Origin: Escherichia coli
Lineage (GTDB): Bacteria; Pseudomonadota; Gammaproteobacteria; Enterobacterales; Enterobacteriaceae
Length of the DNA: 64,000 nt
NCBI RefSeq assembly: GCF_044647545.1
Contig: NZ_CP172818.1
Reading direction: 5' to 3' (one strand)
In this document: positions 46,267 through 49,314 of the stretch, piece after piece
Layout: each line of letters starts with the position of its first letter
Numbering within the stretch: the stretch's first letter is position 1
Made by a program: the position numbers and the translations under genes
The notes under the pieces: model-generated
Database searches by the model: none
What the model saw: the letters and a program-made list of their open reading frames with translations, nothing else
Told to the model about the DNA's origin: nothing

Positions 46267-49200
46267 ATGGACGTCAGTCGCAGACAATTTTTTAAAATCT
46301 GCGCGGGCGGTATGGCTGGAACAACAGTAGCGGCATTGGGCTTTGCCCCAAAGCAAGCACTGGCTCAGGCGCGAAACTACAAATTATTACGCGCTAAAGA
46401 GATCCGTAACACCTGCACATACTGTTCCGTAGGTTGCGGGCTATTGATGTATAGCCTGGGTGATGGCGCGAAAAACGCCAGAGAAGCGATTTATCACATT
46501 GAAGGTGACCCGGATCATCCGGTAAGCCGTGGTGCGCTGTGCCCGAAAGGGGCCGGTTTGCTGGATTACGTCAACAGCGAAAACCGTCTGCGCTACCCGG
46601 AATATCGTGCGCCAGGTTCTGATAAATGGCAGCGCATTAGCTGGGATGAAGCATTCTCCCGTATTGCGAAGCTGATGAAAGCTGACCGTGACGCTAACTT
46701 TATTGAAAAGAACGAGCAGGGCGTAACGGTAAACCGTTGGCTTTCTACCGGTATGCTGTGTGCCTCCGGTGCCAGCAACGAAACCGGGATGCTGACTCAA
46801 AAATTTGCCCGCTCCCTCGGGATGCTGGCGGTAGACAACCAGGCGCGCGTCTGACACGGACCAACGGTAGCAAGTCTTGCTCCAACATTTGGTCGCGGTG
46901 CGATGACCAACCACTGGGTGGATATCAAAAACGCTAACGTCGTAATGGTGATGGGTGGTAACGCTGCTGAAGCACATCCCGTCGGTTTCCGCTGGGCGAT
47001 GGAAGCGAAAAACAACAACGATGCAACCTTGATCGTTGTCGATCCCCGTTTTACGCGTACCGCTTCTGTGGCGGATATTTACGCACCTATTCGTTCCGGT
47101 ACGGACATTACGTTCCTGTCTGGCGTTTTGCGCTACCTGATCGAAAACAACAAAATCAACGCCGAATACGTTAAGCATTACACCAACGCCAGCCTGCTGG
47201 TGCGTGATGATTTTGCTTTCGAAGATGGCCTGTTCAGCGGTTATGACGCTGAAAAACGCCAGTACGATAAATCGTCCTGGAACTATCAGTTCGATGAAAA
47301 CGGCTATGCGAAACGCGATGAAACACTGACTCATCCGCGCTGTGTGTGGAACTTGCTGAAAGCGCACGTTTCCCGCTACACGCCGGACGTAGTAGAAAAC
47401 ATCTGCGGTACGCCAAAAGCCGACTTCCTGAAAGTGTGTGAAGTGCTGGCCTCCACCAGCGCACCGGATCGCACAACCACCTTCCTGTACGCGCTGGGCT
47501 GGACGCAGCACACCGTGGGTGCGCAGAACATCCGTACTATGGCGATGATCCAGCTGCTGCTCGGTAACATGGGTATGGCCGGTGGCGGCGTGAACGCATT
47601 GCGTGGTCACTCCAACATTCAGGGCCTGACCGACTTAGGTCTGCTCTCAACCAGCCTGCCGGGTTATCTGACGCTGCCGTCAGAAAAACAGGTTGATTTG
47701 CAGTCGTATCTGGAAGCGAATACGCCGAAAGCGACGCTGGCTGATCAGGTGAACTACTGGAGCAACTATCCGAAGTTCTTCGTTAGCCTGATGAAATCTT
47801 TCTACGGCGATGCCGCGCAAAAAGAGAACAACTGGGGCTACGACTGGCTGCCGAAGTGGGACCAGACCTACGACGTCATAAAGTATTTCAACATGATGGA
47901 CGAAGGCAAAGTCACCGGTTATTTCTGCCAGGGCTTTAACCCGGTTGCGTCCTTCCCGGACAAAAACAAAGTGGTGAGCTGCCTGAGCAAGCTGAAGTAC
48001 ATGGTGGTAATCGATCCGCTGGTGACTGAAACTTCTACCTTCTGGCAGAACCACGGCGAGTCGAACGATGTCGATCCGGCGTCTATTCAGACTGAAGTAT
48101 TCCGTCTGCCTTCGACCTGCTTTGCTGAAGAAGATGGTTCTATCGCTAACTCCGGTCGCTGGTTGCAGTGGCACTGGAAAGGTCAGGACGCGCCGGGCGA
48201 AGCGCGTAACGACGGCGAAATTCTGGCGGGTATCTACCATCATCTGCGCGAGTTGTACCAGGCCGAAGGTGGTAAAGGCGTAGAACCGCTGATGAAGATG
48301 AGCTGGAACTACAAGCAGCCGCACGAACCGCAATCTGACGAAGTAGCTAAAGAGAACAACGGCTACGCGCTGGAAGATCTCTATGATGCCAATGGCGTGC
48401 TGATTGCGAAGAAAGGTCAGTTGCTGAGTAGCTTTGCGCATCTGCGTGATGACGGTACAACCGCATCGTCTTGCTGGATCTACACCGGTAGCTGGACAGA
48501 GCAGGGCAACCAGATGGCTAACCGCGATAACTCCGACCCATCTGGTCTGGGGAATACGCTGGGATGGGCCTGGGCGTGGCCGCTCAACCGTCGCGTACTC
48601 TACAACCGTGCTTCGGCGGATATCAACGGTAAACCGTGGGATCCGAAACGGATGCTGATCCAGTGGAACGGCAGCAAGTGGACGGGTAACGATATTCCGG
48701 ACTTCGGCAATGCCGCGCCAGGTACACCAACCGGACCGTTTATCATGCAGCCGGAAGGGATGGGACGCCTGTTTGCCATCAACAAAATGGCGGAAGGTCC
48801 GTTCCCGGAACACTACGAGCCAATCGAAACGCCGCTGGGCACTAACCCGCTGCATCCGAACGTGGTGTCTAACCCGGTCGTTCGTCTGTATGAACAAGAC
48901 GCGCTGCGGATGGGTAAAAAAGAGCAGTTCCCGTATGTGGGTACGACCTATCGTCTGACCGAGCACTTCCACACATGGACCAAGCACGCGTTGCTCAACG
49001 CAATTGCTCAGCCGGAACAGTTTGTGGAAATCAGCGAAACGCTGGCGGCGGCGAAAGGCATTAATAATGGCGATCGTGTCACTGTCTCAAGCAAGCGTGG
49101 CTTTATCCGCGCGGTGGCGGTGGTAACGCGCCGTCTGAAACCGCTGAATGTAAACGGTCAGCAGGTTGAAACGGTGGGTATTCCAATCCACTGGGGCTTT

Positions 49201-49314
49201 GAGGGTGTCGCGCGTAAAGGTTATATCGCTAACACTCTGACGCCGAATGTCGGTGATGCAAACTCGCAAACGCCGGAATATAAAGCGTTCTTAGTCAACA
49301 TCGAGAAGGCGTAA
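46267..49314 (+). CDS. fdnG: Formate dehydrogenase-N alpha subunit FdnG, with in-frame UGA (selenocysteine) at 46852..46854
   Basis: Track ORFs 46267..46854 and 46903..49314 are in the same frame, separated only by TGA; Tat signal RRQFFKICAGG; context ...NQARV-U-HGPTVASLAPTFGRGAMTNHW; total 1015 aa. Confidence 0.93.
46852..46895 (+). promoter_or_regulatory. Probable SECIS stem-loop immediately 3' of the UGA
   Basis: Local inverted repeat (gcaag-tc-ttgc) just downstream of the TGA; exact structure not folded. Confidence 0.5.

Follow-up and report, generated by a model that had tools for sequence, protein, structure and literature searches.

Sec196 of Escherichia coli FdnG and the accompanying SECIS element have been known since 1991, and the structure of the protein was solved in 2002. 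The locus described here, which lies in a 64-kb window of E. coli DNA (the whole stretch of 64,000 nucleotides that was analysed), holds the same gene as that encoding the E. coli K-12 protein (PDB 1KQF and 1KQG): the two products align over residues 1-1015 with selenocysteine (Sec) at position 196, the operon order fdnG-fdnH-fdnI is the same, and so are the neighbouring genes. At least four amino acid differences separate FdnG of the window from 1KQF (D127 for E, F342 for L, A366 for E and A666 for S), and the fdnG DNA of the window is 100% identical to that of several non-K-12 strains.

The paralog FdoG resembles FdnG in having Sec at codon 196, an identical 59-nt SECIS and a three-subunit operon, fdoGHI, although the fdoG locus differs in adjoining fdhD, fdhE and the rha genes. 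The best-studied bacterial SECIS is that of fdhF, and the rules on U17, on G23/U24 and on an 11-nt spacing come from the fdhF SECIS literature (nucleotides are counted from the U of UGA). As in fdnG, the fdhF element is found directly 3' of the UGA and inside the coding sequence, and we take its upper hairpin to have the same bulged U at nucleotide 17 and the same G23-U24 in the apical loop; it belongs, however, to the Rfam family SECIS_2 (RF01988), whereas the fdnG element is of the SECIS_3 type. FdhF itself is unlike FdnG, being a cytoplasmic 715-aa enzyme without a Tat signal and a distant relative (E = 3e-45). The alpha subunit of the W/Mo enzyme FdhAB from Desulfovibrio vulgaris (PDB 6SDR, 8CM4 and others), in turn, is a full-length homolog of FdnG (E ~1e-288) that has Sec in the same column and the motif U-H-x-P-T-V in common with it.

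The observations reported below, namely the identity of the gene, its single in-frame TGA, the match and the covariation of the SECIS, the Sec/Cys pattern of the homologs and the operon, leave hardly any doubt that the gene split in two by ORF calling is fdnG of the E. coli fdnGHI operon, and that its TGA codon 196 specifies selenocysteine, with a SECIS behind it. Both FdnG Sec196 and SECIS_3 are already known, and the locus is a textbook case rather than a discovery.

An in-frame TGA within fdnG

A frame check placed the ATG at 46267, the TGA at 46852..46854 and the TAA at 49312..49314 in one common frame, whose 1016 codons include a single internal stop, codon 196. The principal features of the gene are as follows.

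46267..49314, + strand: fdnG, coding for the catalytic molybdopterin subunit (alpha) of formate dehydrogenase-N, 1015 aa, residue 196 being Sec
46852..46854, + strand: UGA codon 196, the Sec codon; sole internal stop, aligned to Sec in homologs
46267..46365, + strand: twin-arginine (Tat) signal peptide with a predicted extent of residues 1-33, containing SRRQFFK (4-10) and A-L-A (31-33)

The mechanically generated ORF list contains two pieces of this frame, 46267..46854 (195 aa) and 46903..49314 (803 aa), the second of which begins at the first ATG, 46903; naive ORF calling does indeed split fdnG, as the preliminary description of the locus had stated. That description was also right to place both ORFs in the same frame, but not in its statement that they are separated only by the TGA, because 16 open sense codons (46855..46902), encoding HGPTVASLAPTFGRGA, lie between the TGA and the ATG at 46903. 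The read-through product has 1015 residues, Sec counted, and its proposed identity as a molybdopterin formate dehydrogenase is borne out by an alignment over its full length with PDB 1KQF chain A, where the non-standard residue X (Sec) stands at 196, and by a match to the NCBIfam equivalog model for FdnG, TIGR01553 (1622.1 bits, cutoff 814.2; residues 2-1014 aligned to positions 1-1009 of the profile). In the translation, codon 196 forms part of the active-site motif V-U196-H-G-P-T, in keeping with U-H-x-P, the Sec-related motif given for TIGR01553 (PMC13188914).

Many E. coli RefSeq genomes have an fdnG with 100% DNA identity to that of the window, and their annotation shows a single 3048-nt fdnG CDS, followed by fdnH and fdnI. 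Of 5426 complete E. coli genomes, 5425 carry such an annotated single-CDS fdnG. When the window was scanned for long ORFs of the same frame split by a TGA, one further case was found besides fdnG, at 12411; this is the ordinary stop of a transporter gene, directly followed by the ATG of another gene, and it has no SECIS.

Pfam domains in FdnG comprise Molybdop_Fe4S4 (44-104), Molybdopterin (107-589), which runs across the TGA codon 196, and Molydop_binding (893-1008). The translation carries C50, C53, C57 and C92, the residues that ligate the [4Fe-4S] cluster of FdnG (PMC3636253). Since the Pfam TAT_signal match was too weak to rely on (E = 0.87), the twin-arginine motif was checked directly, and SRRQFFK at residues 4-10 was found to fit the pattern [ST]RRxF[LF]K; of the twin-arginine signal proposed earlier, the motif is present and the profile match weak. 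Mature FdnG lacks the Tat signal peptide (PMC3636253), and cleavage probably occurs after A33.

The fdnGHI operon and its surroundings

Downstream of fdnG, the window holds the genes of the two partner subunits and a possible end of the operon.

49327..50211, + strand: fdnH, iron-sulfur beta subunit (TIGR01582, 482 bits versus a cutoff of 335; RefSeq annotation)
50204..50857, + strand: fdnI, cytochrome b gamma subunit (NF007558, 487 bits versus a cutoff of 339; RefSeq annotation)
50878..50915, + strand: terminator-like hairpin with a 12-bp stem and a T run at the end of fdnGHI, a pattern match alone

The coding sequences of fdnH and fdnI overlap by 8 nt, and the terminator-like hairpin at 50878..50915 was located by a consensus scan. 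Against the Fdh-N equivalog the gamma subunit scores 487 bits, while its score against the Fdh-O gamma model NF007924 (268 bits) falls under the cutoff, so that the window holds fdn and not fdo. The operon is flanked by yddG upstream and by yddM, adhP and maeA downstream. A candidate FNR site upstream of fdnG (46189..46202, two mismatches) was given no weight, the pattern not being enriched in the window (53 occurrences versus 37 expected). Over its left 41 kb, the window is not collinear with the RefSeq strain to which it was compared, owing to indels. Neither sel genes nor tRNA-Sec were found in the 64-kb window, which is devoid of tRNA genes altogether; the sel genes of E. coli are located elsewhere in the genome.

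Structure of the SECIS element

The sequence that begins one codon ahead of the UGA contains the sole Rfam match in the 64-kb window, within which a compact upper hairpin can be delimited.

46849..46907, + strand: bacterial SECIS (Rfam SECIS_3 type) within codons 195-214, identified by its RF01989 match and by covariation
46866..46883, + strand: upper SECIS hairpin, GGUAGCAAGUCUUGCUCC, with 7 bp and a bulged U at 46868 (U17); presumed SelB-binding part

The match to SECIS_3 (RF01989) covers the model completely (1-59 of 59) and scores 84.3 bits (gathering score 63; E = 7.8e-20), whereas SECIS_2 (RF01988) gives 28.8 bits against a gathering score of 70. The hairpin as a whole (46855..46897) follows directly after the TGA and lies inside coding codons 197-211. 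In its upper part, which begins 11 nt past the UGA and which we presume, from what is known of the fdhF SECIS, to be the SelB contact, nucleotides 46866..46873 pair with 46877..46883 in a 7-bp stem with one bulged U, closed by a 3-nt apical loop, GUC, at 46874..46876 (G23, U24).

The preliminary description had proposed a local stem-loop after the TGA, and a fold of 46852..46900 agrees with this, as does the Rfam match: the minimum free energy (MFE) is -14.6 kcal/mol for these 49 nt and -12.7 kcal/mol for a 46-nt fold. The MFE folds and the Rfam structure agree in the upper helix. They differ in the lower stem, which in the MFE fold is shifted by one register; in the Rfam structure, the lower helix of the window has 9 pairs, of which 2 (A-C and A-G) are non-standard. 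The stability of the 49-nt hairpin is not significant relative to shuffled sequences (z = -1.45), 19 of 200 of which fold as well, and further z-scores were -1.65 and, for 71 nt, 0.04. Stability thus neither supports nor refutes a SECIS, and reliance was placed instead on covariation and on the covariance model, the match to which is the decisive evidence.

All four constraints on bacterial SECIS elements quoted in PMC13188914 hold for the fdnG hairpin. The upper stem should have 4-16 bp and its apical loop 3-9 nt (PMC13188914, Fig. 2 legend). The first or the second nucleotide of the loop should be a G, as a rule with G or U after it, and the fdnG loop opens with G46874-U46875. The apical loop should lie 16-37 nt from the UGA, a distance that is 19 nt in fdnG (46855..46873), and the MFE should be -7.5 kcal/mol or lower (PMC13188914), a limit that the fdnG element passes at -12.7 to -14.6 kcal/mol, although these values are no better than those of shuffled sequence.

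Conservation and covariation among homologs

Homologous sites were gathered solely by the downstream DNA pattern for RGAMTNHW, which yielded 118 sites from diverse bacteria of many phyla. At position 196, 115 of these align a TGA and the remaining 3 a codon for Cys; no other codon occurs. A different residue in this column would have spoken against Sec, but the homologs have Sec (TGA) or Cys alone, so that the alignment sustains the earlier reading of the codon. In Desulfovibrio FdhA structures (e.g. 8CM4), Sec likewise occupies the column of FdnG residue 196.

Covariation was analysed in 48 distinct FdnG-like sequences, with the qualification that the SECIS falls in coding sequence, where covariation and codon constraints are not entirely separable, and that one side of three lower-helix pairs was fixed by the pattern used to gather the homologs. 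Across this set, 91.5% of the cells at SECIS pairs are paired, compared with 27-49% in slid controls, and in the upper helix the proportion rises to 98.2%. Three SECIS pairs have changed on both sides (25 cells), and two pairs of the upper helix show compensatory changes, from G-C to A-U in 10 sequences and from A-U to C-G in 11. The covariation score of 0.204 lies above the 0.043-0.076 of the slid controls, and none of 500 shuffles reached it. U17 is kept in 48 of 48 sequences and G23-U24 in 47 of 48.

The three homologs with a Cys codon have no Rfam SECIS match and form on average 3.0 of the 7 upper pairs (n = 3). An Rfam match at the gathering score was, however, also absent at the five deltaproteobacterial loci and the one Neobacillus TGA locus that were tested, so that its absence from the Cys homologs carries no information as a negative control. 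Deltaproteobacterial homologs, unlike fdnG, misfit the SECIS_3 structure, with a mean of 4.6 of 7 upper pairs, and use a different hairpin.

Alternative readings of the in-frame TGA

The residue inserted at UGA196 is not readable from the window, and this leaves room for a codon that is read by means other than Sec (near-cognate Trp or Cys) or whose main role is that of a selenium-dependent termination switch. In a selC mutant, translation stops at UGA196 (PMC3636253), which implies that the supply of selenium or Sec-tRNA gates expression; such gating is also compatible with UGA196 as a selenocysteine codon. Mass spectrometry, on the other hand, has found the FdnG peptide V-U196-HGPTVASLAPTFGR and has never found Cys at position 196 (PMC3636253), and PMC13188914 cites Berg et al. 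1991 for the experimental verification of the TIGR01553 family. This experimental evidence for Sec196 (mass spectrometry and the 1KQF structure) comes from K-12-derived strains. Furthermore, a conserved and covarying SECIS would be needless for plain leaky read-through, and homologs swap Sec for Cys alone, as expected of a catalytic chalcogen ligand. It is therefore very improbable that UGA196 is read without Sec or functions chiefly as a switch.

No more credible is the reading of fdnG as a pseudogene in which the TGA arose as a nonsense mutation and cuts the protein short at 195 aa. A naive ORF call that returns a 195-aa fragment and a headless 803-aa ORF would suit such a reading, as would a hairpin whose stability alone is not significant. 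However, 5432 of 5433 E. coli records share the 71-nt block that bears the TGA without a single change, the RefSeq annotation is of an intact CDS and not of a pseudogene, and across many phyla 115 of 118 homologs have TGA at the aligned codon. In addition, the 819 codons downstream of the TGA are all open and conserved with 1KQF along their full length, and the SECIS exceeds the Rfam gathering score.

The least likely reading of all is that of two genes, for a 195-aa Fe-S/Tat protein and for an 803-aa molybdopterin protein starting from ATG 46903: both listed ORFs have ATG starts, but HGPTVASLAPTFGRGA, the stretch encoded by the 16 open codons between the TGA and 46903, belongs to the active site and shows conservation across phyla, 1KQF_A is one polypeptide over both parts, the Pfam Molybdopterin domain (107-589) crosses the TGA, and a peptide spanning residue 196 has already been observed (PMC3636253).

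Identity between fdnG and fdoG around the UGA codon

The 59 nt of the SECIS are identical in fdoG and thus offer no compensatory changes; the comparison of the paralogs was used instead as a test for constraint at synonymous sites.

46849..46919, + strand: 71-nt block in which fdnG and fdoG are perfectly identical, the longest identical run in their codon alignment

The next-longest identical run measures 35 nt, and overall the two genes are 74.3% identical in nucleotide and 76.6% in amino acid sequence. Within the block, 20 of 20 codons are identical, against a background of 59% among codons for the same amino acid (P ~3e-5), and the block exceeds the Rfam SECIS model by 12 nt on the 3' side. 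It is doubtful that this reflects constraint beyond the recognised SECIS, in the form of an extended RNA element for the efficiency of Sec insertion or for ribosome pausing, or else recurrent gene conversion between fdnG and fdoG; the block might equally be attributed to the hairpin and protein conservation alone. Gene conversion, if it does occur, would keep the recoding signals of fdnG and fdoG matched.

Proposed mechanism and significance

For SelB binding, selenium insertion, molybdenum ligation and Tat export, the reading of UGA196 as a selenocysteine codon draws on the literature. The mRNA of 46855..46897 folds into a bacterial SECIS hairpin, the upper stem-loop of which (46866..46883) would, on that basis, be bound by SelB carrying GTP and Sec-tRNASec. 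SelB would then deliver Sec to the ribosomal A site as the UGA arrives, and UGA196 would be translated as selenocysteine and not as a stop. This would yield one molybdopterin subunit of 1015 aa, exported by the Tat route, whose Sec196, within U-H-G-P, would ligate molybdenum, and which would act together with FdnH and FdnI as the respiratory formate dehydrogenase-N. According to the literature, such a route needs selA, selB, selC and selD in trans, and we assume their presence in the source strain.

An in-frame TGA with a hairpin downstream signifies, at this locus, recoding and not a broken gene, as the preliminary description recognised from the bare sequence, which makes fdnG a positive control for a genome scan. 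Annotation pipelines need explicit handling of Sec UGA codons, as RefSeq provides at fdnG.

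The fdnG reading frame and its operon

The fdnG frame runs on the + strand from an ATG at 46267 to a TAA at 49312..49314, and its sole internal stop is the TGA at 46852..46854, codon 196 of 1016. The coordinates, shared frame and 1015-residue read-through length put forward in the preliminary description are all correct, as is its expectation that naive ORF calling would split the gene: a mechanical ORF list gives 46267..46854 (195 aa) and 46903..49314 (803 aa) in one frame, with 16 open codons, encoding HGPTVASLAPTFGRGA, separating the TGA from the first ATG, where the 803-aa ORF begins. 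RefSeq has one unbroken CDS of 3048 nt, 'formate dehydrogenase-N subunit alpha'. Many complete E. coli genomes carry fdnG with 100% identity to this 3.3-kb region, and 5425 of 5426 genomes contain a match.

Residues 1-1015 of the read-through protein align with chain A of PDB 1KQF ('formate dehydrogenase, nitrate-inducible, major subunit'); the non-standard residue is at 196, and the printed alignment shows no more than four substitutions. Selenocysteine-containing Desulfovibrio FdhA structures, aligned over their full length, place Sec in the same column as window residue 196. The protein scores 1622 bits against NCBIfam TIGR01553 (cutoff 814) and contains the Pfam domains Fe4S4, Molybdopterin and Molydop_binding, the TGA falling inside the Molybdopterin domain. 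The twin-arginine signal that had been proposed is present as the motif SRRQFFK at residues 4-10, with a weak Pfam TAT_signal profile match (E = 0.87). The two ORFs after fdnG encode FdnH (TIGR01582) and FdnI (NF007558), each over its cutoff, while the Fdh-O gamma model remains under its cutoff on the window gamma subunit; the operon is therefore fdn, not fdo. The RefSeq neighbours are yddG upstream, fdnH and fdnI next, and yddM, adhP and maeA downstream.

The elements spanning or following the TGA are:
46849..46907, + strand, full-length match to Rfam SECIS_3 (RF01989)
46866..46883, + strand, upper SECIS hairpin GGUAGCAAGUCUUGCUCC, from the Rfam structure and MFE folds
after fdnI, terminator-like hairpin at the end of the three-gene operon

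Several further observations concern the surroundings of the gene. For fdnI, mechanical ORF calling takes TTG 50162 as the start (231 aa). The start at 50204, given by RefSeq and by the NF007558 profile (1-217 of 217), makes the gene overlap the end of fdnH (at 50211) by 8 nt. An FNR-like site, TTGATTTCGCGCAA, at 46189..46202, 65 nt 5' of the fdnG ATG and with 2 mismatches to TTGAT-N4-ATCAA, would fit anaerobic regulation of fdnG, but with 53 occurrences in the window for 37 expected the pattern shows no enrichment. At 44296..44621, between narU and yddG, the window lacks two stretches, 642 bp and 1538 bp long, that the closest RefSeq strains possess; on either side of the gaps these strains are 100% identical to the window. 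The missing DNA comprises part of the genes for leucine-rich-repeat proteins and most of a porin gene of the OmpC family, and there are overlaps of 9-11 nt at the junctions. Two antisense ORFs, 46441..47610 (- strand, 389 aa) and 47680..48987 (- strand, 435 aa), lie wholly within fdnG; neither RefSeq annotation nor other evidence supports them as genes, and they are probably a by-product of sense-strand codon usage. The only other TGA-split pair of same-frame open frames in the window, each of at least 150 aa, is found at 12411..12416. This TGA was rejected as a Sec site: it ends an ABC-transporter gene (11400..12413) as a normal stop codon, the ATG of the next gene (12414..13355) follows directly, and the Rfam scan of the window found no SECIS there.

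The SECIS element

A local stem-loop had been described after the TGA, and it is a SECIS hairpin: the SECIS_3 match scores 84.3 bits (gathering score 63, E = 8e-20), with only 28.8 bits for the fdhF-type SECIS_2, and no other Rfam family reaches its gathering score in the 64-kb window. The same upper hairpin appears in the Rfam structure and in the MFE folds of both 46852..46900 and 46852..46895. It starts 11 nt past the UGA and has 7 bp, an apical GUC loop with G23-U24 and a bulged U at nucleotide 17, with the U of UGA as the first. It conforms to the published bSECIS model (PMC13188914) in all four respects, namely a loop of 3-9 nt with an upper stem of 4-16 bp, a G in the first two loop positions, a UGA-to-loop distance of 16-37 nt (here 19 nt) and an MFE no higher than -7.5 kcal/mol (-12.7 to -14.6 kcal/mol for this hairpin). 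Hairpin stability alone is not significant (z = -1.45). In the Rfam register the E. coli lower stem contains two non-standard pairs, and the MFE fold shifts this stem by one register. fdnG is a single gene with an in-frame UGA and an fdnG/fdoG-type SECIS at the correct distance, in a three-gene operon.

The paralog fdoG, taken from an E. coli genome where it adjoins fdhD and fdhE, likewise reads TGA at codon 196, and its 59-nt SECIS is identical to that of fdnG; over the codon alignment the two genes share 74.3% nucleotide identity. Their longest identical run is 71 nt (46849..46919; the next longest is 35 nt), and its codons are identical at 20/20 positions against a background of 59% for same-amino-acid codons (P about 3e-5), which shows that synonymous sites, and hence the RNA, are constrained. 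This block, which 5432 of 5433 E. coli records carry unchanged, reaches 12 nt past the 3' end of the SECIS_3 model; candidate causes of the extension are RNA constraint, constraint on the protein motif RGAMTNHW, or gene conversion.

In Yersinia aldovae, an fdoG-like gene (locus L021) carries an Rfam FdoG1_thermometer (RF02778, 228 bits, 1920..2111) in its 5' UTR as well as a SECIS_3; the Rfam scan found no FdoG1_thermometer match upstream of fdnG in the window.

Conservation across bacteria

An exact-pattern scan of 100,044 species genomes with the back-translated downstream motif RGAMTNHW, leaving the Sec codon unspecified, returned at least 120 loci. Among the matches listed, 118 sites had enough upstream sequence, and the codon 14 codons upstream of the motif was TGA in 115, TGT in 2 and TGC in 1, with no other codon at this position. 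The alignment of a different residue, which had been named as grounds for abandoning the selenocysteine reading, is thus not what these sites show. On this comparison, the restriction to TGA and Cys codons is what a genuine Sec position should show, namely interchange of Sec with Cys, and indicates that the homologous position holds Sec or Cys.

A gap-free alignment of 48 distinct FdnG-like TGA sequences with the window (gamma- and betaproteobacteria and a few others, among the matches listed) was scored on the Rfam structure, with 3' partners slid by 1-3 columns as controls. Paired cells amount to 91.5% versus 27-49% in the slid controls, and to 98.2% in the upper helix. Three pairs carry compensatory changes, with A-U replacing G-C in 10 sequences, C-G replacing A-U in 11 and C-G replacing G-C in 4. 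The covariation score is 0.204, compared with at most 0.076 in the slid controls and equalled in 0 of 500 shuffles; these values are to be read knowing that the element is coding sequence, that the sequences are mutually related and that the search pattern fixes one side of three lower-helix pairs. All 48 sequences have U17, and 47 of them have G23-U24. The SECIS RNA covaries and is under purifying selection.

A further 43 distinct TGA homologs (Deltaproteobacteria, Firmicutes, Chloroflexi and others, among the matches listed) do not fit the SECIS_3 structure and use different hairpins, examples within the collected loci L004-L123 being L006, L010, L024, L046, L047 and L009. Several form their own hairpins 3' of the UGA, e.g. 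GCGGCUCUGGCAGAGUCGU, and none of six tested reaches any Rfam gathering score. The three Cys-codon loci also have no Rfam match, which is only weak evidence because the six TGA homologs lack one too. The Rfam SECIS families appear to cover just part of formate dehydrogenase SECIS diversity.

Selenocysteine at position 196

PMC13188914 lists the formate dehydrogenase alpha subunit (TIGR01553, motif UHxP) among experimentally verified selenoproteins, with reference to Berg et al., and names the SECIS elements of the three formate dehydrogenases of E. coli as the best characterised in bacteria. FdnG and FdoG carry Sec at position 196; an MS peptide, V-U196-HGPTVASLAPTFGR, was detected, Cys was never found at that position, translation stops at UGA196 without Sec-tRNASec, and the mature protein lacks the Tat signal peptide (PMC3636253). 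The peptide corresponds exactly to residues 195-210 of the window translation.

A pseudogene, two separate genes, or read-through inserting a residue other than Sec are, even taken together, very improbable explanations of the interrupted frame, being contradicted by the conservation data, by the crystal-structure chain and the MS peptide, both of which span the TGA position, and by the conserved, covarying SECIS. For selenocysteine insertion, established knowledge suggests that SelB with GTP and Sec-tRNASec would bind the upper hairpin and bring Sec as the UGA enters the A site, that Sec196 would serve as Mo ligand of the bis-MGD cofactor, and that FdnG would be exported together with FdnH by the Tat system. 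The sel genes would act in trans; the 64-kb window contains no sel gene and no tRNA gene.

Both the split frame and its selenocysteine interpretation are borne out: the TGA at 46852..46854 and its hairpin are a textbook pair, the Sec codon of E. coli fdnG with its SECIS. The feature was known before, and the case is useful as a positive control for a genome scan.
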